Source: Patescibacteria group bacterium (lineage in GTDB: Bacteria; Patescibacteriota; Patescibacteriia; Buchananbacterales; UBA6539). From it: 64,000 nt of DNA. Made by a program: the position numbers and the translations under genes. The notes beneath the pieces are model-generated. The model was not told the DNA's origin. It saw only the letters and a list, made by a program, of their open reading frames with translations, and made no database searches. Below are positions 1,068 to 30,140 of this stretch, one piece after another; the first letter of the stretch is position 1; the number at the start of each line of letters is the position of its first letter. The stretch spans positions 33,021 through 97,020 of the forward strand of contig JAQTYZ010000004.1 of the NCBI GenBank assembly GCA_028688055.1, in the 5' to 3' direction.

Positions 1068-2906
1068 TTAATTAACCGCCGCCGTCGATAATAAAATTTC
1101 ATTCAATAATTTCGTTTTGTTGCTTTCGGCCGTCAAACTAATTTTTCCATTCACCACTTCAAAAGGAAAATAGCTAATTCGCCAGCTATTTTTTTCTTCA
1201 GGATTTTTATTGAAGGTCAAACCAATTGCAAGCCCCCGTTGAGTCTCGGCAGAAAAATACTGATCAAAGATAAAATTTCCCAGTGAATAAAAAATCGGCT
1301 TATCTTTATAAATTTCAACACCCTGAATCACATGCGGATGGCTACCAATAATAACGTCGGCACCACTATCAATTAATTCATGGGCAATTTTTTGTTGGCG
1401 CTCATTGAATTGAGCTTGGTACTCTTGTCCCCAATGAATACTAACAATAACCGCATCATTTTCGCTCGAAAGCTTTCTTAATAGTTGAGTCGCTTTATTC
1501 AAATCAATTTGATTATAGACCATACTAAAACCAACCATGGCGATTTTTAAATCACGGACGGACACAATCTTTGAGCTACAGTCATCAACGCTGCCGTCCG
1601 AACAGCCACTAAAATTAAAATTCAATTCGCTTAAATTTTTAGCAGTTTCCGTAACGCCTTTGACCCCTTGATCAGTCAGATGATTATTGGCGATATTAAA
1701 AAAATTAAAGTTATATCGACTTAGATTTTTAACTGTCGCGGGATCAAACGCAAAATCATTAGTTAGTTCGGGCGGATAATGACTACCATTATTAGTCACC
1801 GCTCCTTCTAGATTAGCAACTACAATATCAATACCTCTGAAAAAACGCTTTTCTTCGCCCGCCAAATCTTTGAGGAGATAATCAAAACTTTTAGCCTTAA
1901 CTATTTCCTTAACATTTCGATCCAGCATAATATCGCCAAAAAACAAAAAATTTGCAACCGAAGATTCTTTCTTTTGCCCCTGATAAAAATAAAAAATATT
2001 GTGGCTCGTTGTTGGTAGATCGGCATTGCCTAACAATGCTCCGGAGTTGGTTGAAAACAAAAGGTCACTCTTCTCAGCCTGCTGAAATTCAAGATATTTT
2101 AATAAAACATACAATGACGGACCAGAACAGGTATCAAGCGCGCGCAGGCTGTCAAAATCAAAATTTTCAATTGCCGCAATACTTTTTTGATCATGAAATG
2201 AGGCCACGTCCAAGGGTTGGTAATGAGAAAAATCAACGCTGGTTAATACCAGAGTATTGGTTGGATTAACATTTTCGTCAAGCAACTGCGCCAACTTTTT
2301 CAATTCAACTAATGGCGTATTATCTTTAATAATAATGGGGATAAATTTCGCTTGGGGCAGGCTTTTTTTTATAAAACTAACCAACCCAGAGATTGAATGC
2401 TCGACAATAAATGGCTCTTCTTCAACCCTTAAGTTAGAAATTTTCTTCTGCATTTCAAGCTTCGGTTCCAAGGCTCCATAAGGTGTCGCCCAAACTGCCC
2501 GTGACGTAATAATATTATCCGCCCCTCCATTATAGTGGTTTGGACCAATTAAAATAACGGTTTGATAATCAAATTTTTCCAGGCCTTCAAAAAAAGCAGC
2601 GATTTTGTCCTTAACAATCAAGTGATGGGGAATAATTCCACCAATCACCTTTGCTTTTGGTAAAACTTTTTCCGATTCAGCCTGGCTATAAGCATCATCA
2701 AAAAAATCGCGCTCGGAAAAAAATGAATAATGAACAGGCAGATTATCCAAAGTTTTTAGATCCTTAATATTGGATGTAGTCAGTTGCGATTGTGGCGTCA
2801 GCCAAAAAAAATATAGCAGCACAAATTGCGATACCATCAGAGCTGCTATAATTCCGTAAATTATTTTTTTAACCATACAAACTAACGATGAAGCGCGCCA
2901 CCCCAC
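1068..2906 (-). CDS. Fusion protein: N-terminal TM anchor, MEMO1-like (AmmeMemoRadiSam system protein B) domain, then a CapA/PgsA-family metallophosphoesterase domain.
   Basis: 612 aa. IIPHHLIVKDK ... GPNHY resembles MEMO1. The C-terminal half has IHWGQEYQ ... GSHPHVIQGVE ... LGNFIFDQ motifs of the CapA family. It overlaps the upstream gene by 25 nt. Confidence 0.6.
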   Translation of the reverse strand: MGWRASSLVCMVKKIIYGIIAALMVSQFVLLYFFWLTPQSQLTTSNIKDLKTLDNLPVHYSFFSERDFFDDAYSQAESEKVLPKAKVIGGIIPHHLIVKDKIAAFFEGLEKFDYQTVILIGPNHYNGGADNIITSRAVWATPYGALEPKLEMQKKISNLRVEEEPFIVEHSISGLVSFIKKSLPQAKFIPIIIKDNTPLVELKKLAQLLDENVNPTNTLVLTSVDFSHYQPLDVASFHDQKSIAAIENFDFDSLRALDTCSGPSLYVLLKYLEFQQAEKSDLLFSTNSGALLGNADLPTTSHNIFYFYQGQKKESSVANFLFFGDIMLDRNVKEIVKAKSFDYLLKDLAGEEKRFFRGIDIVVANLEGAVTNNGSHYPPELTNDFAFDPATVKNLSRYNFNFFNIANNHLTDQGVKGVTETAKNLSELNFNFSGCSDGSVDDCSSKIVSVRDLKIAMVGFSMVYNQIDLNKATQLLRKLSSENDAVIVSIHWGQEYQAQFNERQQKIAHELIDSGADVIIGSHPHVIQGVEIYKDKPIFYSLGNFIFDQYFSAETQRGLAIGLTFNKNPEEKNSWRISYFPFEVVNGKISLTAESNKTKLLNEILLSTAAVN

Positions 2907-4675
2907 TCAACGACAGTAAAACCATTACGACTCGGGGCGGTTAACTTTTGCGCCGCAACATTAGCGTAATCATCCAAACCTTGATAATCCATAAAAATTC
3001 TAATGACCGTATCGGGTTTAGGAGTTACCTCAAGCGGCGCCAATTTATCAAACTCGGTTTGCGGCACAAATGAAATCAAATAATAATTTTTTGCCTGCAT
3101 TTTAGGTAACCAAAAATCGATAAATTCATCATACTCATTTTTTACTAACCCCAATTTACTCAATGAGTCAACCAAAAAATCTTTAACATTTTCTTGCTTA
3201 ACAACAAAGCCTTCCTGCGGCCGATCATAGTTTAAAGCGTAGCCTTCCCAAAATAAATAGGGATAAATTTTACCATCAGCATAATTATAGATTGATCCAT
3301 CCGGACTGGCTTTAACAAACCAACCGTTTCGATAAAGCGGTTCGGTAATGGTCAGGCCGCCAGCCGGTTTGACTTTGACACTCACGTCCTGGACTTGTTG
3401 AGGGTATAAATAAATAACCGGCTTGCCGCACTCGACCGCCGGCAAATATTTGGCATTACGAAATTCAATAAACTTACCGAACGGATCTTGCCAAAAAATA
3501 ATCGGCCGCTGGGTCAAAAATGATTCAAAACTAATTTTTGGCTTTTCTTTTGATGCGTTGCTATCGTACCCTGGATAATACTGATTATACATGGTCTTCA
3601 AGACTGAATCTGTATCCTTGCTGTTAGCCTTAAGCGAAATATTTTTGAGGTCATAGACAGGATCGCCACTCGAAGTTTTGCCAATTTGTTCAAGCGGCGA
3701 AACATCTTTAAGATAACTCGCGTAGTTGTAACAACCACTAGCACCGCAACCGCCAATATTTTTAAAAATATATTCATTTGAATTTTTACTGCCATCATTC
3801 CAAGTCACGTCTAAAACATATGGCGTTGCTCCGGCGTACTGACTCGGTTCCCCCGCTTTCGTGGCAAACGTGAGATTGAAATAATATTCTCGAACCGTGC
3901 CGTCAGCTGCTTTGATCAGGAAACAGCCTTGATTATTGTCTTTGTAAAGATAATGCTCACCGTCATATTTGAATAATTTTTCCACATTATCATATGAGGT
4001 CAAAAATCGATACGGCTCTTTATCGGCCCGATCCAACACTAGCTTTGAATTCGGGATTAAGACCGACTCAGGCGTGCCAAGATTACCAATCGTTAGCGTG
4101 TCATTTATTTCAAAGATTTTTTGGCCAAAACCGTAAGGCGCGGCTGAAGAAATTTTTGTTAAAACAATTAAGCGATTGCCGTCCTTAATCACGCGATACA
4201 TTTGCGGCCAAGCTGGACCGCTGACATCTTGATAAATTACGTCGTACAAAACGGCGGCACTAAATTGGCCGCCCTGATTCACGGTGCCAACTTTATAAAT
4301 TTTAAAACCCGCAAAATAATTAGCAACGGAATTTTGATAATAGTCTTTAATGTCAGTGTCATTTTTACTAAGTGTTTCAACACTTTGAGTATCAAAAAAA
4401 TTATAATAGGCTACTTCAACCGGCCAATCGCTCCAAGCTATTGAAAGCGACCCGCTGGTTGTATCAATATTCGCCGACGTTTCTGTTGTCGTCGGAACCT
4501 GAGACGAATCAATTGGCGTAGTGTTAGTATTTACCACCGTCGCTTCGCTATTAACATTATCATCCGAAACGGCTTTATTTTTTTGCAGCAGTAAAAAAAT
4601 TGTCACCCCATTAAATAATACTAAAATAATTATTACCAGCGCGCTGAGATATTTTTTTAGCGACAATGTATTCAT
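2882..4675 (-). CDS. Membrane-anchored extracytoplasmic protein, function unknown.
   Basis: 597 aa with a single N-terminal TM helix followed by a Thr/Asn/Ser-rich linker. No recognisable catalytic motif. Confidence 0.5.
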   Translation of the reverse strand: MNTLSLKKYLSALVIIILVLFNGVTIFLLLQKNKAVSDDNVNSEATVVNTNTTPIDSSQVPTTTETSANIDTTSGSLSIAWSDWPVEVAYYNFFDTQSVETLSKNDTDIKDYYQNSVANYFAGFKIYKVGTVNQGGQFSAAVLYDVIYQDVSGPAWPQMYRVIKDGNRLIVLTKISSAAPYGFGQKIFEINDTLTIGNLGTPESVLIPNSKLVLDRADKEPYRFLTSYDNVEKLFKYDGEHYLYKDNNQGCFLIKAADGTVREYYFNLTFATKAGEPSQYAGATPYVLDVTWNDGSKNSNEYIFKNIGGCGASGCYNYASYLKDVSPLEQIGKTSSGDPVYDLKNISLKANSKDTDSVLKTMYNQYYPGYDSNASKEKPKISFESFLTQRPIIFWQDPFGKFIEFRNAKYLPAVECGKPVIYLYPQQVQDVSVKVKPAGGLTITEPLYRNGWFVKASPDGSIYNYADGKIYPYLFWEGYALNYDRPQEGFVVKQENVKDFLVDSLSKLGLVKNEYDEFIDFWLPKMQAKNYYLISFVPQTEFDKLAPLEVTPKPDTVIRIFMDYQGLDDYANVAAQKLTAPSRNGFTVVEWGGALHR

Positions 4676-4692: not shown

Positions 4693-6951
4693 CTATTTGG
4701 TCAAAACCGGCGCTTTCTCTTCAACTTTCACATTACCCGGTCCGGCAATCGGCACAGAGAAACAGAACTGCGAGCCTTTGCCTTCGCCGTCGCTGTCCAC
4801 CCAAATTTTTCCTTTATGCGCGTCAATCAACATTTTAGCAACATACAACCCCAAGCCAACGCCTTCGGTGTGAATGCGGAAACTGTCCTTGCCGCGCGTA
4901 AACTTTTGAAATAATTTTTCTTGAATATCTTTGGACACGCCGATACCGGTGTCCTTAACACAAAAGGTTACCATCCCTTTCGGATTGGCCCGCAAAATAA
5001 CTTCAATTTTTCCTTCCTTGGTATATTTAATGGAATTGTCGATAAAATTCATCATCACCTCGTGTAACTTGGCGTCATCCGCGACAATCATTGGAATATT
5101 ACCTTCCGGCTTGACCAAAATTAATTTCAAACCTTTTTGCTCAGCGTTATTTTTGAGCGTCTCAACAATTTCTTTGGCCTTGGCAACAGCATCAACTTTT
5201 GACCAAATAAATTCCTGACGGCCGCTTTCAATGCGTGAAATGTCGAGCAAATTTTCCACCAACCCAATTAATCGTTCGTTGGACAGATAAACTTTATCCA
5301 AATTCTGCATAATTTGATCAGGCACTGGCCCAAATGAACCTTCTTTCATCATTGAAATATAACCCTTAATAACGGTTAACGGCGTGCGCAATTGGTGCGA
5401 TGCGATCGAAATGAATTCCGACTTCGCTTTATCAAGCTGTTTTAAATTAGCGTTGGCTTTGCGTAACTCCGCGGTCTTGCGACGGACTTCTTCTTCTAAC
5501 TTTACATTGAAATCTTTTAATTCATCGTAAAGTCTAGCGTTTTCAATCGCAATCCCCGCCTGACCGCCGATAATTTTGAGCGTGTTAATATCTTGATTGT
5601 TATAGGTATCACCGGATTTTTTATTACCTAAAGCTAGTACGCCAATTAAATTTTCTTGCACAAACAACGGAATGATTAAAGCGATATCGTTGTCGTGCAG
5701 GGCTTTAAGTAAAACTGGATTAACGGGCTGGAATTCGCCGTTCTCAAATTGCGTTACCATTTCGTCAATAACCAAAATTCCCGGCGTTTGTTTTAACTCC
5801 TGCTGCAAAATTTTGACGACATCTGGGAAGGCAATTAATTGTTCGGCCACACCGGCCTTAAAACCATCCTTATGTAGGATCTCGAGTTTACTATCTTTAT
5901 CAAGTAAAACAATACCGACTTTTTGAAAATGGAAAGCCTCACCTAAAGTCTTGGCTATTGAAGCTAAAAGATTTTTTAAGTCTAGAATTGAAGAAGTGAC
6001 TTCAGAGATTTGTGACAGCAATTTATCTGGATCATAGGTTTTTTTATAGAGAAACTTATCAGTTGATCTTTCAATAATTCTTCGCAACGGCTGATACCCA
6101 GCGGCGATCAGAATTGACATTACTAAACCGACAAGAATATTTGATCTAAAACCAATCAAGCTTTCAAAAAAAGAAGCAATAATTACTGATAAAACCGAAT
6201 AGAGTGAAACTAATAGCAAAACAATTAAACCAAAAACCAGCGTACGAGCAACAATCAAACGAATATCCATTAAACGATATTGACTTATTGCATAATAAAT
6301 AAACCCAACCATTATCACAGAAAAAGCTGGCCCCAAATTATTAAAGTTGAATATACCAAATCTTGGTAAAATTAAATTAGTTATAAATGCCATAAAAGAA
6401 AACAACATTATACCTATAAAAAAATATTTCATCTGCTGACGTTGAATTGCTAACTTGGTACTTCTATATCCATATATCATCAAATAAAGAATAAATAAAA
6501 AATTTAAGATATAGTAAACTACTAAATAATTATAAAATCTACCTAAAACTAGGCTTACTCCTGTGAAATATATTGATTTATTTGAAACTGTAATATCATA
6601 TATAATAAACTTCGTAAATGATATTAACCAAAAAAAAGTGCCCATTACAATAAATAGATAAACTGCATAATTTAATAAGTTGCTAAATTTAACAACTTTT
6701 TTAATATAATTTTTAAGAAACAACGTAAAAAGAATAAAAGCGGCTGAAACAAACCAAAATGCAAACCTAGGCCATATTATTTTATTTGTGATGGTCATCA
6801 TCGCAATAGAAAAACCCCAGCCACAAATATTTAAAATAAAAATCGATAAATAAATATTGGAGAAATTTTTTTTATTTTTCAAAAAAATAATAATACCTAA
6901 AAATAGATTTATTATTATTAAAGAAAATAAAACCAAATTAGCAAAATTCAT
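4693..6951 (-). CDS. Sensor histidine kinase with a multi-TM N-terminal sensor domain, a GAF-like domain, HisKA and HATPase_c. No cognate response regulator lies in this window.
   Basis: 752 aa. Roughly 300 aa of TM helices come first, then an SHQLRTPLTVIKGY H-box, then N/G1/G2 boxes (DTGIGV, GVGLGL). Confidence 0.85.
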   Translation of the reverse strand: MNFANLVLFSLIIINLFLGIIIFLKNKKNFSNIYLSIFILNICGWGFSIAMMTITNKIIWPRFAFWFVSAAFILFTLFLKNYIKKVVKFSNLLNYAVYLFIVMGTFFWLISFTKFIIYDITVSNKSIYFTGVSLVLGRFYNYLVVYYILNFLFILYLMIYGYRSTKLAIQRQQMKYFFIGIMLFSFMAFITNLILPRFGIFNFNNLGPAFSVIMVGFIYYAISQYRLMDIRLIVARTLVFGLIVLLLVSLYSVLSVIIASFFESLIGFRSNILVGLVMSILIAAGYQPLRRIIERSTDKFLYKKTYDPDKLLSQISEVTSSILDLKNLLASIAKTLGEAFHFQKVGIVLLDKDSKLEILHKDGFKAGVAEQLIAFPDVVKILQQELKQTPGILVIDEMVTQFENGEFQPVNPVLLKALHDNDIALIIPLFVQENLIGVLALGNKKSGDTYNNQDINTLKIIGGQAGIAIENARLYDELKDFNVKLEEEVRRKTAELRKANANLKQLDKAKSEFISIASHQLRTPLTVIKGYISMMKEGSFGPVPDQIMQNLDKVYLSNERLIGLVENLLDISRIESGRQEFIWSKVDAVAKAKEIVETLKNNAEQKGLKLILVKPEGNIPMIVADDAKLHEVMMNFIDNSIKYTKEGKIEVILRANPKGMVTFCVKDTGIGVSKDIQEKLFQKFTRGKDSFRIHTEGVGLGLYVAKMLIDAHKGKIWVDSDGEGKGSQFCFSVPIAGPGNVKVEEKAPVLTK

Positions 6952-7700
6952 AGAAAGTTTTTATATTTAAACCAGTCTTCATTAATCTTAGCATCGATCT
7001 CATGCATCAATTTTTTGTTTTTTTGATAATTAGTTCTGATATTTTTTGAAAAATAATTAAATAAAATTTTATTTTTTGACCTAAAATAAATAAAAGATTC
7101 ATTAACATTTAAAAACACGGGGACCACATGGTGCTCAGGCATTGGGTTCCACCGTTTTGGTTCATTAAAAATGATAAAAGGTATACCTAAACGATTAAAC
7201 AAAACCCAATTTGGATAAAAAATTATAGCTACCCAATAATCTATTTTTTTTTCAATACTATATTGCATCAATTCCCTAGCGAGATTAAATGTAACCTCAT
7301 GTCCTCTACCTCTTTTTTGTTTGGAAACAATAAATCTCGATAATTCAACAACTGTGCCGCGCCTAATATACTCTGGTAAGTTTAAATATTCCTCTGCCTG
7401 AATTTTGTGATCACCCTTACCTAAAATTAAACGAGCGGTACCAACAATATTTCCATGGCTATCCCTAGTTATGAACGATATTGAATGTTGGTCATACTTA
7501 TCTTTCTCCCTATAATCCTCATAAAATTTAGCGTCTAAATAGTTTTTTTCAGTACAATAAACCTCATATCTCAATTTATATATATCATCATAATCTATGT
7601 CATTTTCTGCGATATAGGTTTTATATTCTTCCTTAATAAACCCAATACTACTGAGATAAAGCTTTAATGCATAATAAATTTTTTTTATATACCTCTTCAT
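6948..7700 (-). CDS. GNAT-fold N-acyltransferase, FeeM/N-acyl amino acid synthase-like (autoinducer-synthase-like).
   Basis: 250 aa. YKLRYEVYCTEKNYL ... GTARLILG resembles the exosortase-associated N-acyl amino acid synthase family. Its start overlaps the histidine kinase gene by 4 nt. Confidence 0.5.
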   Translation of the reverse strand: MKRYIKKIYYALKLYLSSIGFIKEEYKTYIAENDIDYDDIYKLRYEVYCTEKNYLDAKFYEDYREKDKYDQHSISFITRDSHGNIVGTARLILGKGDHKIQAEEYLNLPEYIRRGTVVELSRFIVSKQKRGRGHEVTFNLARELMQYSIEKKIDYWVAIIFYPNWVLFNRLGIPFIIFNEPKRWNPMPEHHVVPVFLNVNESFIYFRSKNKILFNYFSKNIRTNYQKNKKLMHEIDAKINEDWFKYKNFL

Positions 7701-7732
7701 TAAGAATTATCACTAAATTACTAAAAATTTTT

Positions 7733-8440
7733 CTACTTAGTGGCCGTATTTAGAATGGCTTGACCAGCATAAACAAATTTATCATCGGAAATATTTACAA
7801 AATGTGCACTGCGCATTAACTTAGCCTGCTCACCAGTCCTCATAAAATCATAATCACCAAATACACCCTCCTTTTTTATTAAATAATTATAATAAAACAT
7901 TAAAAAAGTTGGGTATGCCATTTTAGATACATTAATAAGTACATTCAATAAACTATGGACTCTGAATTCATTATTTAGATGAGACATATAAATTTTAAAT
8001 GGACTCCACCCCTCCTTCACGTTTGATACAACAACCATTCCACCCTTCTTTAAAACACGATAAAATTCTTCAAATATTTTTTTTCGTATCTCGGCGTTGA
8101 TGGTGTATATAACATTGTTACAAACAATACCATCAAAACTTTCATCTTCAAAAGGCAATCTACCATCAGAAAGATTAATTAGGTGGGTAGCAATATTACT
8201 ATTCTTATCCTTTATAATGTCTAAGGCTATATCGCTATTATCAAGCGCTGATACAGTTGCACCATTGTGCGCAAACGCAATCGCAAAATTGCCAGTACCA
8301 GCACCTACGTCTAAAATTTTTTTACCTTCAACATTACCAAAAATTGATAAAAACTCATTAATAAGATTTTGGTAAGGTATTACTATTTTTAAAACATCAT
8401 AGACGGAAAAATATTTTTTCCAAAATAAATTAGTAAGCAT
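7733..8440 (-). CDS. Class I SAM-dependent methyltransferase.
   Basis: ILDVGAGTGNFAIAFA glycine-rich motif I, then an acidic motif II (ALDNSD). Confidence 0.75.
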   Translation of the reverse strand: MLTNLFWKKYFSVYDVLKIVIPYQNLINEFLSIFGNVEGKKILDVGAGTGNFAIAFAHNGATVSALDNSDIALDIIKDKNSNIATHLINLSDGRLPFEDESFDGIVCNNVIYTINAEIRKKIFEEFYRVLKKGGMVVVSNVKEGWSPFKIYMSHLNNEFRVHSLLNVLINVSKMAYPTFLMFYYNYLIKKEGVFGDYDFMRTGEQAKLMRSAHFVNISDDKFVYAGQAILNTATK

Positions 8441-9113
8441 CTTTAAAAATTATTTGATTAACATACATTAAAATTGTAAAAACTGACATCGCGCCAATAA
8501 CCGAGGTATCAAACGTAGTAAAAAAATAAATTGACATACTAAATAAAACATTAAAAATTATTGTTACTAAAGTTCCTAAAACTATTTTTTTTATTTTTAA
8601 CTTATAAATTCCATCAATCGTATAATAAACTTTCAAAAGATTGACAAGTGCAGCAATTGAATAAATCAAAAAAGCAAGGATAAATATAAACAAACCTATT
8701 GGATTAATCGACGTATAAAAATATGGAAAAACACTAACAGCACTCAAGGAATATAAGCCTGGGACAAAAAAAGAAAATGACAAAACCATAGTTACAAAGT
8801 ACGCAATTAACGCTTTTACTTTCCTTCTATTAACTTCAAAAGGGTAGGTTAAAGTAAAAATATAAAAAAAATGAACGATTAACAGGCCAAAAAGAAAAGA
8901 AAAATTTTCAATAACTAAAAGGGTAATAAATCTAAAATTTAAAAAAGATAAAAAAAGATCAGCCAGCCAAAATGTCAATGCAAGCTGTGCCATTCCAAAA
9001 TTAAAATATATTGGCTTTCCTTTTGACTTTGACAATAGAATAATTGAATACAATAAACTGATCAAAGCCATTAATCCATCAAGATATATAGATAATGTAA
9101 ACAATAATTTCAT
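8430..9113 (-). CDS. Stand-alone multi-TM (about 7 TM) sensor-domain paralog, homologous to the N-terminal membrane domain of the 4693-6951 histidine kinase.
   Basis: 227 aa, all hydrophobic helices. It shares the (K/R)xK...YFxFG(M/L)Axxxxxxxx(W/F) pattern with its neighbours and with the kinase N-terminus. Confidence 0.6.
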   Translation of the reverse strand: MKLLFTLSIYLDGLMALISLLYSIILLSKSKGKPIYFNFGMAQLALTFWLADLFLSFLNFRFITLLVIENFSFLFGLLIVHFFYIFTLTYPFEVNRRKVKALIAYFVTMVLSFSFFVPGLYSLSAVSVFPYFYTSINPIGLFIFILAFLIYSIAALVNLLKVYYTIDGIYKLKIKKIVLGTLVTIIFNVLFSMSIYFFTTFDTSVIGAMSVFTILMYVNQIIFKDAY

Positions 9114-9129
9114 TAAATTATAATAAAAA

Positions 9130-9804
9130 TTAATCCTTAAATAAAATAGAATAAATGTAAAACAGAATTATAAAGGTAAAAAATATACCAATAGCGGTTA
9201 AATCAAAGTTAGTATAATAAAAATTTAAAAGACTAAATATAATATTTGACAGCACCACAAACGCTGATCCAACAATAATCTTTCTTAACTGAATTTTATA
9301 AATTCCTCCGCTTCCTTCGTAGCTAACAAACAAATTCTTGAACGACAGGGCAGAAAATAGAAAAAAATAAGTATTATAAATCGTCAGGTAAAATGGATTA
9401 ATTGTTCGGTATCTGAACGGAAAATTTGAATAGGCGGAAGTTATAAATTCGGGCCAAAAAGAAATAAAAGCAATAAAAATAACAATGCCATAAAAAAAAT
9501 AATATTTTGATTTAGGGGCAGCGTCAGGTACCGGAAAATTTCTAGTAAATAGGTAAAAGAAAATTAAAACCAAAGCTCCGGTTAGAAAACCCATTTGTGC
9601 GTGGAAAATGGGCGATAATGGAGTGAGTCTAAAATAATCAGAGAGAGTAAAGAGCATCCACAGACCCAGCACCAAAAGTGCCATCCCGAAATAATGAACC
9701 CCGCTACCCTTTCTTTTCAATAAAATATAGGACAAACAAAAACTGACAACCATTAAAATTACATTGATATATAGTATTACTGATAATAAATACTTTAAAA
9801 TCAT
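9130..9804 (-). CDS. Stand-alone multi-TM sensor-domain paralog.
   Basis: 224 aa. Closest to the 8430-9113 product (LLKRKGSGVHYFGMALLVLGLWM versus LLSKSKGKPIYFNFGMAQLALTFWL). Confidence 0.6.
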   Translation of the reverse strand: MILKYLLSVILYINVILMVVSFCLSYILLKRKGSGVHYFGMALLVLGLWMLFTLSDYFRLTPLSPIFHAQMGFLTGALVLIFFYLFTRNFPVPDAAPKSKYYFFYGIVIFIAFISFWPEFITSAYSNFPFRYRTINPFYLTIYNTYFFLFSALSFKNLFVSYEGSGGIYKIQLRKIIVGSAFVVLSNIIFSLLNFYYTNFDLTAIGIFFTFIILFYIYSILFKD

Positions 9805-9808
9805 AAAC

Positions 9809-10498
9809 TTACTTTATATAAAGTTTCTTATCCCCCAACAAAATAAACCAGGTTAAAACAATAACCATCGGCAAAGAAAGATATGCAACATACCATGGAT
9901 TATCAACCCCATAAATTAAAGGCAATATTACGCCCGGCAAAGTCCCAAAAATTGCCAATGATCCTGTAGCCAATAGTATAATTAAAGAATTTTTCTTTAT
10001 TAAACCTTGTGATTTAAAAAACTTTTTCATTAAAATATAAAATGCTATTAGCAAATACGAACAAAAAAATACTGAGTAATATACTCTGCCCGGCAGAGCG
10101 GAGCTAAAATTATTAAATGGGGGCATTAAAATAATATGATCCAAATATAAAGATGGGGTGATAATTATTATTATATCAATAAATAAACTAGCTACAATCA
10201 AAAATTTAAGATATGGCTTAATTTTAAATGATTGATATGGATAATAAATACAAAAAATAAAAAAGCTAACTGGAACCAATGATCCCGATAAGTTCTCAAA
10301 TATTGCCCAAAAAGTTGCCGCTGATAAATCAACCGATTCACGAAACATTGATTCTCCTAATGCCCATAATGCGAGAAGCATAAGGGATAATGCCAACATC
10401 AAATTGATCTTACTGTTTCTATTTCTCAACCATACCAATAAGCCGAGGAAAAAATTAAGAAAAGAAACTAAAATTTCACCAATGTTTATGGAATTCAT
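9809..10498 (-). CDS. Stand-alone multi-TM sensor-domain paralog.
   Basis: 229 aa. Aligns end-to-end with the 12220-12918 product. Confidence 0.6.
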   Translation of the reverse strand: MNSINIGEILVSFLNFFLGLLVWLRNRNSKINLMLALSLMLLALWALGESMFRESVDLSAATFWAIFENLSGSLVPVSFFIFCIYYPYQSFKIKPYLKFLIVASLFIDIIIIITPSLYLDHIILMPPFNNFSSALPGRVYYSVFFCSYLLIAFYILMKKFFKSQGLIKKNSLIILLATGSLAIFGTLPGVILPLIYGVDNPWYVAYLSLPMVIVLTWFILLGDKKLYIK

Positions 10499-10507
10499 AT
10501 CAAAATT

Positions 10508-10753
10508 TCACTTCAATTTTAATTTCATCGACAAAAATACTAGTCGAGCATGAAAATTCAACGAAAATTGAGTAGCCCTAAAATAATCTGAAAAAGACAT
10601 AAACATCCAAGTTAACAAAGCGACATTGGCTAATCCAAAACTAAAATAAATCTTAGTATTTTTAGCTCTGGAGATCAAAATTGAAGCTGTAATTAATAAT
10701 GCGAACATCATTGATGTATCAAGTAATAGTACCTCTTCAAAAAATAGTTTCAT
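10508..10753 (-). pseudogene. Internally deleted mini-paralog of the 7TM family (N-terminal helix fused to the C-terminal tail). Probably a pseudogene or mini-protein.
   Basis: 81 aa. The N-terminus (ISRAKNTKIYFSFGLANVALLTWMF) matches the paralogs. The C-terminal codons (VFLSMKLKLK) match the tail of the 12220-12918 product at DNA level. Confidence 0.4.
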
Positions 10754-10783
10754 AATAGATTAGTTATCCTTAATATTAAGAAT

Positions 10784-11908
10784 CTACCTAATCGACAAAT
10801 AACCAGCCCTCGTCCCTTGTTTCGAAAAAACTATCTGCCAAAGTTGTGTTTTCCTGGTTCTAAATAGAGCCGCCGAGGACAAAAGGTAATATTTCCACAT
10901 TCTATAAAATGTCTCATTGTAGCCTTCTTTTAAATTGTTCCAATTTTTATCAAAATTACTAAACCAGGCTAAAAGCGTTTTGTCGTAATCAAGACCAAAA
11001 TTATGCCAATCTTCCATAATAAATAATCCCTTCGACGACCGAATAATCTCTTCGGCAGCTGGTAACATTGAATTCGGGAAAATATACTTTAGTAACCAGG
11101 CATCCGAAATGGCTTTACTCTTGTTACATCCTATAGTGTGCAGTAAAAATAGTCCACCCATTTTCAAATTTTTATTCACAATAGACATATATGCTCTGTA
11201 ATTCTTGTTTCCAACATGTTCAAACATTCCTAAGGAAACAATATGATCAAACTTTTCATTAACCTCACGATAGTCTTGAAGTCGAATTTCTACCGGCAAA
11301 TCAGCACATATTCTATTACCTAAATCGACCTGCTCTTTTGAAACAGTTATTCCGACTACTGACACCCCATACTTTTCGGCTGCGTATTTTGCAAAACTGC
11401 CCCATCCGCAGCCAATATCTAAAATTTTTTGTCCTGACCTCAATTTTAACTTTCTGCACACCAAATCAAGTTTATTTTCCTGAGCTTCATCTATATTTTT
11501 AGCATCTTCCCAATATGCACACGTATAAACCATTCTTTTATCTAGCATTGCTTTATACAAATCATTTCCTATATCATAATGCTGCATACCGACATCAAAT
11601 GCATGGGAAACATCTTGTAAGTTTAAAAATTTTGCTCGAAAAATGCTAATAATTGTTTTCAAATTTTTTTTCAAATACTTATTAAGCCTGGCCTTAAAAA
11701 CTTTTTCGAAAAATTTGTCTAATTCCTTTACATCCCACCAACCAGCCATGTATGTTTCACCCATACCCAAAGTATTACCCGTCAAAAAACGCTGATAGAC
11801 CCTATCATCTTTAATTTGAATATCCCAAGACTTATCTCCGTTTACCTTAATTCCCGCTCCAGCAAGAAGCCCTTGGACTATTTTTTTATATTGGTTAAAA
11901 TTTATCAT
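10784..11908 (-). CDS. cfa: Cyclopropane-fatty-acyl-phospholipid synthase family methyltransferase.
   Basis: 374 aa. Collinear with E. coli Cfa across the catalytic core (LDIGCGWGSFAKYAAEKYGVSVVGITVS ... LQDYR ... FDHIVSLGMFEHVG ... LLHTIG ... YIFPN ... MEDWHNFG ... LWQIVFSK). Confidence 0.85.
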   Translation of the reverse strand: MINFNQYKKIVQGLLAGAGIKVNGDKSWDIQIKDDRVYQRFLTGNTLGMGETYMAGWWDVKELDKFFEKVFKARLNKYLKKNLKTIISIFRAKFLNLQDVSHAFDVGMQHYDIGNDLYKAMLDKRMVYTCAYWEDAKNIDEAQENKLDLVCRKLKLRSGQKILDIGCGWGSFAKYAAEKYGVSVVGITVSKEQVDLGNRICADLPVEIRLQDYREVNEKFDHIVSLGMFEHVGNKNYRAYMSIVNKNLKMGGLFLLHTIGCNKSKAISDAWLLKYIFPNSMLPAAEEIIRSSKGLFIMEDWHNFGLDYDKTLLAWFSNFDKNWNNLKEGYNETFYRMWKYYLLSSAALFRTRKTQLWQIVFSKQGTRAGYLSIR

Positions 11909-11949
11909 TTAGAATATATAACTTCTAATTATAATTAATAATTCATTTA

Positions 11950-12213
11950 TTAACCCCATCTTAACCTTGATGTCATCCATAAAAATACGTCCGCCATTAA
12001 AACTGGGTACAGCCAGACGATAAACTGACCGTAGAAATAAGTTCCGGTGAAATCAGCGACAAAATTGAAGATGCCACCGGCAAGACCGAAATTTAAATAA
12101 ACCTTATTGTTTTTAGATCTAGCAAGCAGTGTAAGAGATATAAAAAATGTTGCGACCATTAAAAAAATATCAACGAAAAAAATTCCAATTAATATATGCT
12201 TAAAAATATTCAT
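11950..12213 (-). pseudogene. Internally deleted mini-paralog of the 7TM family.
   Basis: 87 aa. The N-terminal helix (LARSKNNKVYLNFGLAGG) plus a C-terminal IVWLYPVLM segment match the two ends of the 12220-12918 product. Confidence 0.4.
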
Positions 12214-12219
12214 AATATT

Positions 12220-12918
12220 TCAAAACTTTATTTTAAATTTAATTTCATCAACAAAAATACCATAAGTCACAATTATCGGATATAGCCAAACAATAAAATC
12301 ACCATAGGGATAAATACCGAGCGTCTGAGGCAAAAAATTGGATCCTCCACCCAATGATAGTACAAGTGACCCAAGCAAAAGATAAAATGTCTTCTGCTTT
12401 ATTATGCCATCATTTGATGAATAAGCTACGTAAATCCAATAAATAGCCAAAAGCACATAAGCCCAGAAATAAACAATAAATAATGGATACCAACTGCCAG
12501 CATCGACCCAAGATGAAAAACCAAGTTTCGGCGATGAACCAGCAACTATTTTATCAGTAAAGCTCAAGGCTAAAAAAAATAAAGCTAAGAAATACCCTAA
12601 GCTTATTAAAACTATATTTTTTTTACTTCTAGCCTGATGGGTAAAACTCCAAATAAAATGTAAGAAAAAAATTGGGATAAAAGCGGCCGCCGCGTGTAAA
12701 ATTTTTGAGAAATAAACCCCTTCAGAACTCGTATCGCTCCCGATCAAAAAAAATAAACCGGTGGCCCAAAGTCCGATTGCAAGACAAAGTAAAAACCAAA
12801 ATTTTACCGTTAATGATTTTGGATTTTTTAAAATGCTAAACAGCCCTAATAGAAATGATAATACTGCCAGTAATCCGATACTAAATTCTAAAATTTGATT
12901 ACTCATCATAATTACCAA
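12220..12918 (-). CDS. Stand-alone multi-TM sensor-domain paralog. First gene of the minus-strand block.
   Basis: 232 aa. Homologous to the 9809-10498 product and to the kinase N-terminal domain. Confidence 0.6.
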   Translation of the reverse strand: MVIMMSNQILEFSIGLLAVLSFLLGLFSILKNPKSLTVKFWFLLCLAIGLWATGLFFLIGSDTSSEGVYFSKILHAAAAFIPIFFLHFIWSFTHQARSKKNIVLISLGYFLALFFLALSFTDKIVAGSSPKLGFSSWVDAGSWYPLFIVYFWAYVLLAIYWIYVAYSSNDGIIKQKTFYLLLGSLVLSLGGGSNFLPQTLGIYPYGDFIVWLYPIIVTYGIFVDEIKFKIKF

Positions 12919-13093: not shown

Positions 13094-16000
13094 TCACGGC
13101 AGCGCGGGGTAGTTTCGCACCTCCAGGTAATCAAGGTTGATAGGTGTTTGGTTACCCCACTCATACCAACTACCGATCTCGTGCGCTCCGGCGGTCAAAT
13201 TGACCACCAGACTTGCTTCACCCCAGACATCCCATTGGTCTGGTCCGAGACTTGGCAGTGTCAACGTGTCGACCAACTGTCCGTCGACATAGATGTTGCG
13301 TGTCGCGTCGTCACTAGTGCCGTTGGCGTACCGGAATACCAGTTGGTATTGGCCGGCTTCAGGAATGGCGAGGGTAAAGTCCGCGCCACGGTTAGGGCTG
13401 TCAAAACCGTCAGCGAATCCGGTACCGGAGTAACCCCAGTGACCGGTGTTGATGCCAAGGCCCGTCAGGGTCGCCGCTTCGGCTTCAAGATGTTCAATCG
13501 GTGTCGCGACTTCAGTGACTTCCAGCGCGTCAAGGTTGATCGCCCCACCGTTCATCCAGTCTTGGACTAAGCCAATGGTGTGAGCGCCAGCGGTTAAATT
13601 CACGAGCACTTCGCTGTTGCCCCAGACGTCCCAGCTACTGCCAAGACCGAGGAAGGTTTGACGACTAAAATAGTCACAGTCAAGATAGACATTGCGGGTG
13701 GCCGGACTGGGGTCACCCCGGCTGTAGCGGAAACGTAAACGATAGGTGGCGTTCATTGGAACAGTGACGGCGAAATCAACGGCGTCACCAACACTTTCAT
13801 ATTGGTCGACAAAACCACTGCCAACATAATCAACGTGGTCAGTATCAACTGCGGTGTTGGTTAGTGAGGCCGTTTCGGCTTCCAAGCGTTGCCACCAATT
13901 GGGCAGTTGGGTCACTTCGAGGTAATCAAGATTGATCGCCCCGCTGTCAGACCACTCCGACGACAATTCAATCGTGTGAACACCGGCCGTCAGTGACCCT
14001 AATTGTGACGCGGTGCTCCAATCATCCCAAGTGCCAAGACTGGGAAATACCAGCGAGCTAAAATACTCGCCGTCAATCCAGATATGGCGAACCGCCGCGT
14101 CTGGGTAACCATTGGCGTAGCCGAAATCAAAGCGGTAGGTTCCGGCCAGCGGGACGTTAACCGTGAAACTGACAACATCACCAAAGCTTTCGAATTCATC
14201 GACAAAACCAATACCGCTGAAACCAGCGTGATCGGTGTCAACCGCGACGTTAGTCAATGTCGCCGCTTCGGCTTCAGACCGCTGGTGGTACATCAGCGTT
14301 GGATTGTTGAGCGTCAGCAGACAATGGCTAACGTCATTGTCCGTTCTGACATTTTGGACTGCATTGTCCGTATTGACCACGAGCCTTAAGTCGTACTGGC
14401 CGCTGGGAATTGAGCTGAAATCCAGCGTCGTTTCCCAGACTTCCCGTACCGCCAGTTGCGGTGCGAGTAATGACGCCACTAATGTGTCGTCGAGATAGAC
14501 TTCGTAGCGAAACGACGCGCAAGTGCTGTTGGCTTCGTTGCTCAGCGTCAGCGGCACCGCTGACGCGTCCACGTTCATGGTTGCCGGCAAATCCGACGCC
14601 GGATCAGTGAAGCGCACCACTTGCAGGTAGTCTTGGAAACTTCGATTGATACCTAGTAGCCCCAAGCTTGGCATGTCGCCATCAGCTTCAAACCAAACAC
14701 TGACGGCGACACTGGACGACAATAGGTAATCACTTCCGGTATGGAAGGTAACCGTGCAGAGAAACACTGTTGAGTAAGGCGCGATGTACGAAGGCAGTTG
14801 GTAGGTATTGGAATCCAACGTTGCCCAACTGCTGTTCACGGCAATACCGGAGTGACTACCAACAAAGTCAGTAATCGGATCGGCCGTATTGTTGAAGATG
14901 TAGTACGTCCGGGTGTAGGTTTGGTTTGGCAACAGCACAACAGGGCTATCGTAAGTAACGATGCTGACGTTCTGTCCCAAGGTCAGTGCCGCGCTACCCG
15001 CAGCGAGCACTACGCCGGTGGCTGAATACGCCGACACGTGAACCGTGACGGTTTGGCCGTTGCTCAGGTTGTAAATCGTGCACTGGGCATTCTGGAAATT
15101 GTTGTAGAAACTGCCGTTGACGCTGACGCGGTAGTAGGCCGCGCCGGCAATCGTTAACCAACTGGCATCCAAAGACAAAGTGCGGGGCTGCAAGACAACC
15201 TGCAAATTTTGCAGGGCGGGAGCGACAGGCAAGGTAACGGTCACGGTCGACGAGGTCGCCAAAACATTAGCGTTACCATCAACGGCCTCCAGGTGATAGC
15301 TATGCGAGGAGCTGGGAGCCAGGTTGCTCACCGTGAAGTCGAGCGTGGCTGGATTCAAGGTGCCGAGGTACTGGTTGTCTTGATAGACGCGATAGTACGA
15401 CGTACCAGTGACCGCACTGCCAGACAGGTAGACGGTGGTTGATGAAGTCTCGTTGGCGTAGAGGTTGAGACTGGTACCGTTGCCGGGGATGGTGGCATAG
15501 TGAAAACCTGCACTTAATGTTCCACGAACATCACTGTAGCCATAGACGGTGTCATAGACTAGATAGCCGTTGGCCATCTTTTGGACTGCCAACTGATGAC
15601 CGTTATAGTCATCCGTCGCATATTTTTCCTCCTCAACGGGACCGCCAAGTGTTCCCGAAGACATTTGGATATTTGGCCCACCGTAGGCTCTGTAGAAATC
15701 CCAGAGTTGACCATGAATGACGAAGGCTTTACTCTGGCTATGCTGAGAATCATACACTATTGCACACCCATTCAGAGAATCACCAGAGAAATTCTGAATC
15801 CAGCAACTACCCCATTGATGCGCCGCGACAGGACTAGCGTTGTCTGATACTGGCTCACCGACGAGTGAAGCTTTACCATTATCGTTAAAACAACTCACGA
15901 TAACAGGAGAGAGATCAGGACGCCAACCATTAACGGTTTCTCCAGGGCAAACAGAGTTTGACCATCCAGAGATTATGATAGAGTTGTTAGCGGTTAGATA

Positions 16001-16828
16001 CATCACCGCATGGCGAAAATCTTGACGCCAACCACTTCCATCTGAATAGAGAGGCGTGACAGCAAAGCCATATGACGACTCTCCGCCGCCGTTGGCCCAG
16101 GCTTGTCTTAAAGCTGTGTCAACTGGGTAGCGTCCACAAATTATGGGGCTGATGGTTAACACTCGGTCTAATCCGACCGAGGAAGGTGTATAAATAACAC
16201 CTTGGCCTGAGGTAGTGCCATTCCAGGTGGTATTGATGTTACCAAATGGATCATTGACTACTATTCTATAGTCATCAGTATAGCCAATGATTACCAGGTA
16301 ATGGCCATAGGTACTGGCTAAGTGACCAATTAATGGTCTACCGGCATCAATCTCTGATTTGATGGTAGACATCAGGCTGGAATAGATCCAAGCGCTACCT
16401 GTCGTTAACCCATGACGCTGGAGATATTCTACCGATGCTGAAGCATCAGCTTTCCAATCACCATCAATGGGCTTAACGATATAGCCATGCGCACCATACA
16501 CTACATGAGGATTGGTGTCATTTGAAGGATTCCAATCCCTAGCCCAGCTAGTCGTGTAGTCTTCACCGCTGACATCAGTACATCCCGAATATGCGTTGTA
16601 GACATACCATCCTTTGTAGCTGGACGGGTTGTCCGGTTGTAGGCCGTAGTAGCTCGTAATCATCACCGCACTTGTCGGCGCACACGCATTGTAACCAAGA
16701 AAGTCACCCTGATTCATATCCTGAACTTGATGGATGTAGGGAACATCCAATGTTACTGCCGCCGAGACTGAGCGACACACACCGACCAACATCAAAGACA
16801 CTAACATGACCATCAACTTAGCTTTCAT
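13094..16828 (-). CDS. Large secreted multidomain protein: signal peptide, C39-like (papain-like) peptidase domain, Ig/FN3-like beta region, then three tandem CBM6/CBM35-like (galactose-binding-like) repeats of about 130 aa.
   Basis: 1244 aa. AGGAG RBS 8 nt upstream. The N-terminus has a signal peptide, then YIHQVQDMNQGDFLGYNACAPTSAVM (Cys nucleophile context) and a later His/Asp. The C-terminal repeats carry LEAEAATLTNxAVDTDHxGxxGxGFVDxFESxGDxVxFxVxVP ... YRxxFRYANG ... NLTAGxHTIxL ... INLDYLEV. GC content is far above the flanks. Confidence 0.7.
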   Translation of the reverse strand: MKAKLMVMLVSLMLVGVCRSVSAAVTLDVPYIHQVQDMNQGDFLGYNACAPTSAVMITSYYGLQPDNPSSYKGWYVYNAYSGCTDVSGEDYTTSWARDWNPSNDTNPHVVYGAHGYIVKPIDGDWKADASASVEYLQRHGLTTGSAWIYSSLMSTIKSEIDAGRPLIGHLASTYGHYLVIIGYTDDYRIVVNDPFGNINTTWNGTTSGQGVIYTPSSVGLDRVLTISPIICGRYPVDTALRQAWANGGGESSYGFAVTPLYSDGSGWRQDFRHAVMYLTANNSIIISGWSNSVCPGETVNGWRPDLSPVIVSCFNDNGKASLVGEPVSDNASPVAAHQWGSCWIQNFSGDSLNGCAIVYDSQHSQSKAFVIHGQLWDFYRAYGGPNIQMSSGTLGGPVEEEKYATDDYNGHQLAVQKMANGYLVYDTVYGYSDVRGTLSAGFHYATIPGNGTSLNLYANETSSTTVYLSGSAVTGTSYYRVYQDNQYLGTLNPATLDFTVSNLAPSSSHSYHLEAVDGNANVLATSSTVTVTLPVAPALQNLQVVLQPRTLSLDASWLTIAGAAYYRVSVNGSFYNNFQNAQCTIYNLSNGQTVTVHVSAYSATGVVLAAGSAALTLGQNVSIVTYDSPVVLLPNQTYTRTYYIFNNTADPITDFVGSHSGIAVNSSWATLDSNTYQLPSYIAPYSTVFLCTVTFHTGSDYLLSSSVAVSVWFEADGDMPSLGLLGINRSFQDYLQVVRFTDPASDLPATMNVDASAVPLTLSNEANSTCASFRYEVYLDDTLVASLLAPQLAVREVWETTLDFSSIPSGQYDLRLVVNTDNAVQNVRTDNDVSHCLLTLNNPTLMYHQRSEAEAATLTNVAVDTDHAGFSGIGFVDEFESFGDVVSFTVNVPLAGTYRFDFGYANGYPDAAVRHIWIDGEYFSSLVFPSLGTWDDWSTASQLGSLTAGVHTIELSSEWSDSGAINLDYLEVTQLPNWWQRLEAETASLTNTAVDTDHVDYVGSGFVDQYESVGDAVDFAVTVPMNATYRLRFRYSRGDPSPATRNVYLDCDYFSRQTFLGLGSSWDVWGNSEVLVNLTAGAHTIGLVQDWMNGGAINLDALEVTEVATPIEHLEAEAATLTGLGINTGHWGYSGTGFADGFDSPNRGADFTLAIPEAGQYQLVFRYANGTSDDATRNIYVDGQLVDTLTLPSLGPDQWDVWGEASLVVNLTAGAHEIGSWYEWGNQTPINLDYLEVRNYPALP
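15322..15620. repeat. Copy 1 of a roughly 300-bp, about 94%-identical duplicated segment, lying inside the large secreted-protein gene.
   Basis: Direct alignment with 17840-18138 shows identical runs of 69 and 85 bp. Flanking homology continues at lower identity. Confidence 0.85.
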
Positions 16829-28815: not shown

Positions 28816-28870
28816 CTTACTTATTATATAATACTTTCTAAAAAAAGACCCCACTCCCAAGAAAGCAGGG

Positions 28871-30062: not shown

Positions 30063-30136
30063 GCCCTCGTAGCTCAACTGGATAGAGCAGGTCCGTCCTA
30101 AGGACAAGGTTGTAGGTTCAACTCCTGCCGAGGGCA
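30063..30136 (+). tRNA. tRNA-Arg (anticodon CCT).
   Basis: Hand-folded cloverleaf: acceptor GCCCTCG/CGAGGGC, D-arm GCTC..GAGC, anticodon loop GTCCTAA, T-arm GTAGG TTCAACT CCTGC. No encoded CCA. Confidence 0.8.
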
Positions 30137-30140
30137 TTTT

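Follow-up and report, generated by a model that had tools for sequence, protein, structure and literature searches.

The locus described here belongs to a Patescibacteria group bacterium represented by an uncultured metagenome-assembled genome (MAG), of which we analysed a stretch of 64,000 nt, referred to below as the window. It consists of 12 co-directional minus-strand open reading frames (ORFs), among which are a gene for a predicted sensor histidine kinase, two genes for putative biosynthetic enzymes immediately upstream of it (MT2 and GNAT, together the cassette), and an array of genes and gene remnants (A to F) that resemble the seven-transmembrane (7TM) sensor domain of the same kinase (Table 1; loci of relatives are designated by L-numbers). 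An earlier, sequence-only reading of this DNA had described the 12 genes as tightly packed, and the ORF list of the window bore this out, with each gene at the position that had been assigned to it, intergenic spacing from -25 to +41 nt, and overlaps of 11 nt between F and MT2, 4 nt between GNAT and the kinase gene, and 25 nt between sec597 and MEMO-CapA. An independent Logan contig was identical over the block and about 20 related loci had the same layout, and the block is therefore not an assembly artefact.

The kinase and its stand-alone relatives

Judged by its domains, the kinase is a two-component sensor histidine kinase of the HisKA class: the HisKA and HATPase_c domains scored 64 and 93 bits, respectively, and the H-box SIASHQLRTPL was invariant across the clade. 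Its N-terminal part resembles HisKA_7TM (PF16927, a model of ~224 positions with a gathering threshold of 28.6 bits), the family in which a profile search also placed A, D and E. The sequence-only reading had counted six clear paralogs in the array; this held for four of them, as A, D, E and F are full-length 7TM proteins, while B and C turned out to be fragments. For A, the likely start is the ATG at 12909 (229 aa), which matches the public gene call. F remained under the gathering score of PF16927 (13 bits, E 0.09), and it shares 32% identity with E across 225 aa (E 3e-27). No PF16927 match was found for B or C in the Pfam scan. The N-terminus of B is like that of C and F, and a-type C-termini share 54-69% identity with its final 28-32 aa; B is probably a dead fragment. 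C shares 33-40% identity with the initial 60-80 residues of both E and F.

Pairwise identity between the subfamilies is about 20-25%, and BLASTP alone gives no significance. When a profile of the stand-alone proteins was aligned with a profile of 18 kinase N-termini by hhalign, the probability was 99.9% with E 3.4e-32 over 231 columns, which makes the homology to the kinase sensor, claimed previously from motifs, solid. On this profile evidence, A, D, E and F, together with the fragments B and C, are copies of the kinase's own HisKA_7TM sensor domain. Three old orthogroups recur across the related loci in varying number and order: a (A; 15 members across loci), b (D; 10 members) and c (E and F). 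The stand-alone genes are under purifying selection, with dN/dS of 0.09-0.22; A and its L090 orthologue are 54% identical with dN/dS 0.20, and the b-type pair of L094 and L095 has dN/dS 0.115 at a dS of 0.63, near that of ArgRS (0.73).

These values bear on the suspicion that the array is functionless, either decaying debris of kinase duplication or an artefact of assembly. In its favour, B and C are clearly fragments, and the region has a low GC content at third codon positions (GC3). Nevertheless, about 20 independent assemblies conserve the full ORFs of ~225 aa, these form three orthogroups and show dN/dS of 0.09-0.22, and the Logan contig is identical, so that for A, D, E and F this explanation is as good as refuted. 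The same dN/dS range led us to reject diversifying selection on the paralogs, e.g. as phage receptors. A reservoir of silent cassettes, donating sequence by gene conversion to the 5' end of the kinase gene, was also rejected: purifying selection acts on these genes, which are full ORFs, and their identity to the kinase sensor is only ~23%.

With E as the query of an exhaustive HMMER search against 1.84 billion proteins, we obtained only 24 representatives at E<1e-3, of which 20 were 216-250 aa long; none was a full kinase, since the longest did not exceed 313 aa. In Omnitrophota and unclassified MAGs (L014, L021, L022, L029), we found tandem arrays of one to three complete 7TM-HisKA-HATPase kinases of 455-490 aa, which adjoin one or two 7TM-GAF kinases as well as small genes (~120-135 aa). 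The stand-alone 7TM genes of Patescibacteria look like kinase-less derivatives of such arrays, and the tandem complete kinases may represent the ancestral state. In the literature, HisKA_7TM appears merely as an uncharacterised sensor domain (PMC5847659), and the likeness between kinase 7TM domains and G protein-coupled receptors (GPCRs) has been noted in general terms (PMC13581589).

A confident AlphaFold model of E (pLDDT 90.8, pTM 0.88) shows seven helices, with a hairpin separating TM4 from TM5. By the positive-inside rule, the way in which Lys and Arg are spread over the loops would place the N-terminus of the stand-alone proteins outside and the C-terminus inside. The residues invariant among them are W, F, P and G, and a cytoplasmic TM5-TM6 loop motif, Y..S.G..K.QLK, is common to them and the kinase. 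Judged from alignment columns, nothing in the conserved residues suggests catalysis or a polar transport path. We consider it quite improbable that the stand-alone proteins are exporters, flippases, scramblases or enzyme scaffolds that handle a lipidic product while the kinase is the sole sensor. They do lack an output domain, they are packed tightly with the enzyme genes in what is apparently one operon, and they are kept through a change of cassette (see below), which would suit generic handling; some GPCRs, moreover, act as lipid scramblases. Against this stand the homology to the sensor domain over the full length, the loop motif common with the kinase, the complete kinases encoded by the equivalent tandem genes in other phyla, and the W, F, P and G residues in place of a conserved charged or polar transport pathway.

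Exchange of the sensor together with the enzyme cassette

Related loci were found on the contigs of the representatives retrieved with E, by a genome scan with the N-terminal half of the kinase, and by scanning metagenomes with its C-terminal half. One layout recurs in about 20 loci of independent assemblies, in which one to six stand-alone 7TM genes are followed by one to three enzyme genes and then by a gene for a ~750-aa 7TM-GAF-HisKA-HATPase kinase. Thus, the array proposed in the sequence-only reading is present and syntenic in relatives. Distant kinase orthologues with 45-50% identical cores, also in Saccharibacteria, are without stand-alone genes. The cassettes were typed by clustering and by Pfam and NCBIfam annotation (Table 1), and their predicted enzymes have a common theme, namely that acyl groups are condensed or modified with amino acids or amines. 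Several types were found in the same metagenome, both in Ga0265297 (L095, L098, L101, L111, L112) and in Ga0172379 (L094, L104, L118); therefore, variants coexist in one community.

The kinase sensor varied with the cassette and the kinase core did not. Over 17 loci, and with pairs that are phylogenetically non-independent, the identity of the sensor (kinase residues 1-230) was 51% for pairs with the same cassette vs 29.5% for pairs with different cassettes (label permutation p<1e-4), whereas the identity of the core was 63% vs 61% (p=0.18), and sensor and core identities were hardly correlated (r=0.13). In the nine GNAT-bearing loci, GNAT identity followed sensor identity (r=0.85, Mantel p=0.0004) and not core identity (r=0.02). 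A case in point is L090, whose kinase core is 94% identical to that of the window at the amino acid level (dN/dS 0.016), yet whose sensor is only ~34% identical, and the GNATs of the two loci are 31-33% identical. With the other clade members, the core of the window kinase shares 54-68% identity, whatever the cassette type.

Breakpoints of these exchanges lie inside the kinase gene. L094 and L095 share 80-87% identity at the DNA level along a stretch of more than 10 kb downstream, and 85% in the b-type paralog, with no DNA similarity detectable between them across the enzyme genes and kinase codons 1-219; dN between the two kinases is 0.74 in codons 1-220 and 0.11 in the remainder. A second mosaic, L098 and L104, breaks at about codon 205, and the third, the window and L090, at about codon 286, i.e. 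near window position 6096, where the blastn alignment begins (L001 9255). Taken together, the comparisons argue that the 7TM sensor of the kinase is exchanged jointly with the cassette while the kinase core is conserved, which we regard as the key result of this analysis.

Base composition pointed in the same direction. GC3 was 0.18-0.37 in cassette enzymes and 7TM genes (0.25 in MT2) vs 0.26-0.50 in their neighbours, and ~0.8 in the kinase core of L004; other hydrophobic proteins of the window had ordinary GC3. A membrane H+-pyrophosphatase (43335-45323, plus strand, 846 bits) served as a hydrophobic control, with a normal GC3 of 0.46. We take the GC3 step inside the kinase gene as supporting evidence only, because distant cassette-less kinases also show lower N-terminal GC3; for the soluble cassette enzymes, the low GC3 is unaffected by this reservation.

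In the loci with an alpha-oxoamine synthase (AOS), the AOS was 78-84% identical where the sensors were 25-39% identical and the tailoring enzymes differed; the sensor thus follows the tailored end product. The two loci with AOS and formyltransferase had sensors that were 50% identical with cores only 53% identical. In the AOS of L004, the CqsA model NF005526 reached 214 bits, below its equivalog cutoff of 428; BioF reached 430 bits (cutoff 426), and the BioF/Kbl family and SPT models also outscored CqsA. As a separate observation, the AOS proteins of L004, L091, L097 and L137 are 78-84% identical though their kinase cores are only 58-67% identical, which could reflect recent horizontal spread or unusually strong constraint.

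The co-variation and the mosaics are silent on direction, and they would apply alike if the 7TM sensor detected an external amine, amino acid or lipid, e.g. from a host, which the cassette then acylates, decarboxylates or methylates for assimilation or detoxification. Sensor and cassette would then be matched to a niche-specific substrate, as might befit Patescibacteria, which are episymbiotic, and the occurrence of several cassette types within Ga0265297 and within Ga0172379 would fit as well. We nevertheless find such substrate sensing unlikely. The sensor in AOS cassettes follows the tailoring enzyme and not the conserved first enzyme, so that recognition of the end product fits better; FeeM/LuxI-like enzymes and AOS are biosynthetic condensing enzymes, whose characterised relatives make signals or lipids; and Pfam found no transporter or catabolic genes in the block.

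Immediately downstream of the orthologous kinase, L004 (7644-9152) and L005 (7642-9150) carry a 46-aa ORF followed by a radical SAM/SPASM enzyme, with transglutaminase-core and methyltransferase genes further on. The 46-aa ORF and the enzyme look like a precursor and maturase pair for a ribosomally synthesized and post-translationally modified peptide (RiPP).

Table 1. Features of the gene block and its surroundings, and cassette types of the related loci. Positions refer to the window unless a contig is named.
Feature	Position or loci	Strand	Evidence or remark
Kinase 7TM sensor, codons 1-230	6262..6951	-	PF16927 residues 8-230, 27.6 bits vs cutoff 28.6
Kinase codons 231-300, two more TM helices and juxtamembrane motif YQPLR...FLYKK	6052..6261	-	hydropathy; invariant alignment columns
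Kinase core: GAF (codons 324-471), HisKA (509-577), HATPase_c (625-735)	4693..6051	-	Pfam
GNAT, putative FeeM/LuxI-like N-acyltransferase, cassette core enzyme	6948..7700	-	4-nt overlap with kinase start
MT2, predicted class I SAM methyltransferase, cassette tailoring enzyme	7733..8440	-	Methyltransf_11/25, E 2e-18
F, second c-type stand-alone 7TM	8430..9113	-	custom HMM, 234 bits
E, stand-alone 7TM, subfamily c	9130..9804	-	PF16927, 39.6 bits
D, stand-alone 7TM, subfamily b	9809..10498	-	PF16927, 45.6 bits
C, 81-aa N-terminal stub of c-type 7TM gene	10508..10753	-	custom HMM, E 4e-8
cfa, cyclopropane-fatty-acyl-phospholipid synthase	10784..11908	-	NF008686, 577.8 bits vs 400; PF02353, E 6e-88
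B, 87-aa chimeric remnant, c-type TM1 and a-type C-terminal helix	11950..12213	-	custom 7TM HMM, E 4e-6
A, stand-alone 7TM receptor-like, subfamily a	12220..12918	-	PF16927, 57.8 bits
sec597, membrane-anchored 597-aa protein, unknown family	2882..4675	-	no Pfam match; one N-terminal TM helix
MEMO-CapA fusion with N-terminal anchor, final gene of block	1068..2906	-	Pfam Memo and PGA_cap
1244-aa secreted protein, directly upstream of array	13094-16828	-	Peptidase_C39_2, CARDB, three CBM35/CBM6 modules
REC, 128-aa single-domain CheY-like response regulator	L173 9263-9649		5.1-5.5 kb beyond window position 1
Cassette MT2 + FeeM-like GNAT	window, L094, L096, L098, L108
Cassette GNAT + ThiF	L090, L112
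Cassette GNAT alone	L104, L002
Cassette AOS (BioF/Kbl/SPT/CqsA-like) + extended SDR	L004, L106
Cassette AOS + formyltransferase	L097, L110
Cassette AOS + unknown + ICMT/PEMT	L095
Cassette AOS + unknown	L091
Cassette AOS alone	L137
Cassette GNAT + pyruvoyl arginine decarboxylase	L101
Cassette pyruvoyl histidine decarboxylase	L113
Cassette GNAT + phosphatidylserine-decarboxylase family	L118
Cassette PlsC acyltransferase + HAD	L109
Cassette methyltransferase-like	L099
Cassette 543-aa unknown	L010

Enzymes, candidate response regulator and flanking genes

The enzyme families named in the sequence-only reading were all recovered. MT2 matched class I S-adenosylmethionine (SAM)-dependent methyltransferases, and its counterparts in the loci with the same enzyme pair are 46-61% identical to it. 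GNAT scored above the gathering thresholds of FeeM (PF21926, 39.5 bits, threshold 27) and Autoind_synth (PF00765, 41.2 bits, threshold 24), and likewise above that of Acetyltransf_5 (45.3 bits); these are overlapping, related models. Its best NCBIfam match was TIGR03694, with 70.4 bits vs a curated cutoff of 111.95 and residues 26-136 aligned. The sole sequence match in the PDB was the acyl-homoserine lactone (AHL) synthase 3p2f, a weak one (E 0.003), and OlsB was also matched weakly. On this basis, GNAT is a putative N-acyl amino acid synthase (NAS). A 614-aa AMP-binding enzyme of the acyl-CoA/ACP synthetase-like kind is encoded 14 kb from the block (27085-28929, minus strand) and may supply GNAT with activated acyl donors, in an organism expected to be without fatty-acid synthesis.

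The Cfa protein is a true equivalog, as residues 5-372 align to positions 14-381 of the 383 in NF008686. In the 29 related loci clustered, cfa is absent from the cassette position, i.e. between the 7TM array and the kinase gene, and we therefore rejected it as a core component. Its GC3, 0.33, falls between that of the cassette and that of the remaining genome, and it appears to be a lineage-specific insertion. The dead 7TM fragments B and C flank it on both sides, which suggests that cfa arrived via a rearrangement inside the paralog array.

The sequence-only reading had proposed a system for sensing and remodelling membrane lipids or N-acyl lipids. This is compatible with all our findings, and the neighbouring enzymes do belong to lipid or acyl-amino chemistry; the place given to cfa was not sustained, as cfa is not a conserved part. 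In its stricter form, the proposal would be feedback control of the membrane, with enzymes that modify resident or host-scavenged lipids (by cyclopropanation, by making aminolipids or sphingoids, or by decarboxylating or methylating head groups), a 7TM kinase and stand-alone relatives that monitor the composition of the bilayer so that the envelope can be adjusted, and no intercellular signal. Several observations agree with it: Cfa is a true equivalog, GNAT weakly matches OlsB, the sensor lies entirely within the membrane, and the cassettes of relatives hold phosphatidylserine decarboxylase, PlsC with HAD, PEMT/ICMT, and SPT-like AOS with a ketoreductase-like short-chain dehydrogenase/reductase (SDR). 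Patescibacteria are also thought to depend on host lipids. However, lipid remodelling does not predict a wholesale replacement of enzyme chemistry between genomes with 82-94% identical kinase cores, nor the tight co-replacement of the sensor; arginine and histidine decarboxylases, ThiF and formyltransferase are not membrane-lipid enzymes; and Cfa, which the cassette position of the related loci clustered does not hold, is present only in the genome of the window. We thus hold such lipid feedback to be rather unlikely. The exchange of a swappable cassette with the kinase sensor, with the core conserved, argues for a cognate pair of ligand and receptor rather than general membrane remodelling.

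The absence of a response regulator, as noted before, was confirmed for the 64 kb: phmmer searches with CheY, PhoB and Spo0F found no receiver domain in the window, which ends 4.7 kb downstream of the kinase, and there is no adjacent cognate regulator that would complete a two-component pair at the kinase. The contig L173 from the same sample overlaps the window start and extends it by, in this order, genes for a thioredoxin-like protein and DsbB, two small ORFs, and genes for a 530-aa protein, for ArgRS, for a Response_reg protein (REC) and for YkuD, so that a probable CheY-like partner is found just outside, ~9.8 kb downstream of the kinase stop codon. With the syntenic REC of L094-L096, where the order of the 530-aa protein, ArgRS, REC and YkuD/TSP3 L,D-transpeptidase is conserved, it shares 70-76% identity; with the single-domain REC genes that distant relatives carry downstream of the homologous kinase, the figure is 44-56%. 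Among loci with gene coordinates checked, REC follows directly after the kinase in L147 and L154. The divergence of REC from the REC of distant relatives matches that of the kinase cores. As REC is orthologous to kinase-adjacent REC genes of distant relatives, we infer that it is probably the cognate regulator of the kinase. REC is without a DNA-binding domain, and the output would therefore be a phosphorelay or a protein-protein interaction.

Downstream of the kinase, sec597 begins 17 nt past the gene, and its orthologue was found only in L090 (58% identity); its membership in the system is uncertain. The MEMO-CapA fusion, correctly recognised in the sequence-only reading, has no counterpart downstream of the kinase in the other loci of the clade and probably lies outside the conserved system. 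Just past it, at 984-961 on the minus strand, there is a terminator-like hairpin of 10 pairs with a T-run, which is consistent with a 12-gene co-directional block ending there. Scans for promoters and terminators gave the same counts as shuffled sequence, and this hairpin alone looked strong.

Upstream of the array, the gene for the 1244-aa CARDB protein is a compositional outlier, with 52% GC and GC3 0.56 vs ~40% GC for the window. It is syntenic with L090 (76% amino acid identity), CARDB giants also lie upstream in L094 and L137, and the flank, with a PsbP_2-like gene further upstream, is syntenic in relatives. We considered and rejected two other identities of the block: a mobile element, as the Pfam matches of the block include no integrase or transposase, and a defence island, as PADLOC gave only generic overlaps with methyltransferase and HATPase domains. 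Elsewhere in the window there are a tRNA cluster (Arg-CCT, Ala-CGC and Ala-GGC, 30063-30645, plus strand) and a separate tRNA-Glu-TTC (54486-54560, plus strand), with no rRNA or further Rfam family at gathering score within the window.

A possible ligand-receptor module and its relation to known systems

We propose, tentatively and with a little less than an even chance of being right, that the locus is a module of a ligand synthase and its cognate receptor, which diversifies by joint replacement of cassette and sensor into distinct signal and receptor types. The product of MT2 and GNAT would be an amphiphilic compound of the acyl-amino type (a methylated N-acyl amino acid is the probable form) and would partition into the membrane. 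Its binding by the cognate 7TM sensor would modulate autophosphorylation of the kinase, and the signal would pass to the CheY-like single-domain REC about 10 kb downstream. Diversification of cassette and sensor among close relatives would create mutually private types. As for the stand-alone 7TM proteins, our preferred guess is that they are accessory receptors or modulators that act via the single kinase that is left; because they are kept when the cassette changes, specificity for its product is improbable.

A number of points weigh against this ligand-receptor proposal. Several cassette enzymes are classic membrane-lipid enzymes (phosphatidylserine decarboxylase, PlsC, PEMT/ICMT, SPT-like AOS and, in the window, Cfa), and on that account lipid homeostasis fits equally well. 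Patescibacteria are typically without fatty-acid synthesis, which puts the acyl donor in doubt. REC lies ~10 kb off, behind housekeeping genes such as that for ArgRS, and its pairing with the kinase comes from orthology. The permutation and Mantel tests suffer from the non-independence of their pairs, and the GC3 step, present also in distant cassette-less kinases, may partly be an effect of transmembrane composition. Furthermore, the b-type paralog retained 85% nucleotide identity between L094 and L095 despite the swap of the cassette; since the stand-alone genes do not strictly co-vary with the cassette, their link to its ligand is weak. Finally, the co-variation, as read from alignments, proves a functional coupling of sensor and enzymes, and it is silent on whether the product is the ligand or leaves the cell.

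A bolder version is that Patescibacteria, the Candidate Phyla Radiation (CPR), have chemical communication of their own, in which a horizontally shuffled cassette yields lineage-private acyl-amino signals, a GPCR-fold sensor on a conserved kinase is transferred along with it, and the stand-alone 7TM proteins couple in trans to this kinase; we consider this version doubtful. Patescibacteria are tiny, uncultured and host-dependent, and are thought to be poor in regulation and biosynthesis. If coupling in trans were true, a bacterial receptor and its transducer would be separate proteins, and one minimal kinase could integrate several ligands, possibly from other strains or the host. For the recognition of partners or kin in these bacteria, the locus offers a concrete, testable candidate. 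The widespread and uncharacterised HisKA_7TM family gains a first ligand hypothesis, drawn from gene context, and receptors of the GPCR fold are seen here as free-standing proteins beside a kinase-fused homologue.

Of the known systems, the modules of PEP-CTERM and exosortase, with NAS and PrsK/PrsR, had been suggested by the sequence-only reading as a likeness. The two share a FeeM-like N-acyltransferase beside a multi-TM kinase, at sequence level this module is the nearest analogue of GNAT, and Craig et al. 2011 are reported to have linked NAS enzymes with exosortase systems (cited after PMC4897644 and PMC11072679). The likeness did not hold further and the module was rejected: GNAT stayed under the TIGR03694 cutoff (70 vs 112 bits), no PrsR-type regulator was found in the window, and PrsK (TIGR02916, for which membership needs a full-length match of at least 300 bits) was absent from the best 25 NCBIfam matches of the kinase. 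The N-terminus of TIGR02916 was matched by paralog F alone, with 11.7 bits (E 0.067). Of the window proteins that were scanned against Pfam, none is an exosortase, the remaining window ORFs not being scanned and PEP-CTERM proteins not being searched for; the large membrane proteins examined in the window were the H+-pyrophosphatase, Nramp and an ABC permease.

The tandem HisKA_7TM kinases of Omnitrophota and other MAGs are alike in that the same 7TM family occurs in tandem beside a 7TM-GAF kinase, and differ in that their tandem genes encode complete kinases. Stand-alone HisKA_7TM proteins have already been named generically, as 'histidine kinase N-terminal 7TM domain-containing protein' by NCBI and as the LIC10906 family of Leptospira, whose model was matched with 38 bits vs a cutoff of 200. 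Our literature searches found no account of stand-alone HisKA_7TM arrays, of swappable enzyme cassettes coupled to them, or of such cassettes in Patescibacteria.

Also comparable are CqsA/CqsS of Vibrio, LqsA/LqsS of Legionella and LuxM/LuxN-type systems, where a synthase of the AOS or acyltransferase type is paired with a membrane kinase that senses a hydrophobic signal in its TM domain. In the same way, an AOS gene lies directly upstream of the kinase gene in relatives, and a LuxI/FeeM-like GNAT is encoded in the window itself. Unlike those systems, the Patescibacteria AOS, as scored for L004, is not a CqsA equivalog, the kinase has a GAF domain and a HisKA_7TM sensor and is not a hybrid, and the enzyme classes swap within one orthologous locus.

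In logic, the locus matches the pherotype loci agr of Staphylococcus and comQXP of Bacillus. There, too, the genes for signal production lie directly upstream of a multi-TM kinase, the kinase's N-terminal membrane sensor varies along with them whereas its cytoplasmic part is conserved, and variants coexist among relatives. The differences are considerable: the signals of agr and comQXP are ribosomal peptides, whereas the Patescibacteria cassettes encode small-molecule acyl and amino enzymes; the sensor has the GPCR-like HisKA_7TM fold and is accompanied by extra stand-alone receptor paralogs; the candidate response regulator is non-adjacent and without a DNA-binding domain; and the signal here is a putative one. 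New at this locus are thus the GPCR-fold sensor family, the free-standing receptor paralogs and the interchangeable classes of small-molecule enzymes, in a phylum without described signalling of this kind. ComP has a variable N-terminal domain and a conserved cytoplasmic domain (PMC4008528). The hallmark of a pherotype system, co-variation of production genes and sensor with a conserved core, is likewise found at the Patescibacteria locus, a likeness read from sequence; if the ligand-receptor proposal is true, a synthase cassette and its matching membrane receptor diversify here between close relatives as the peptide pherotype systems of Firmicutes do.

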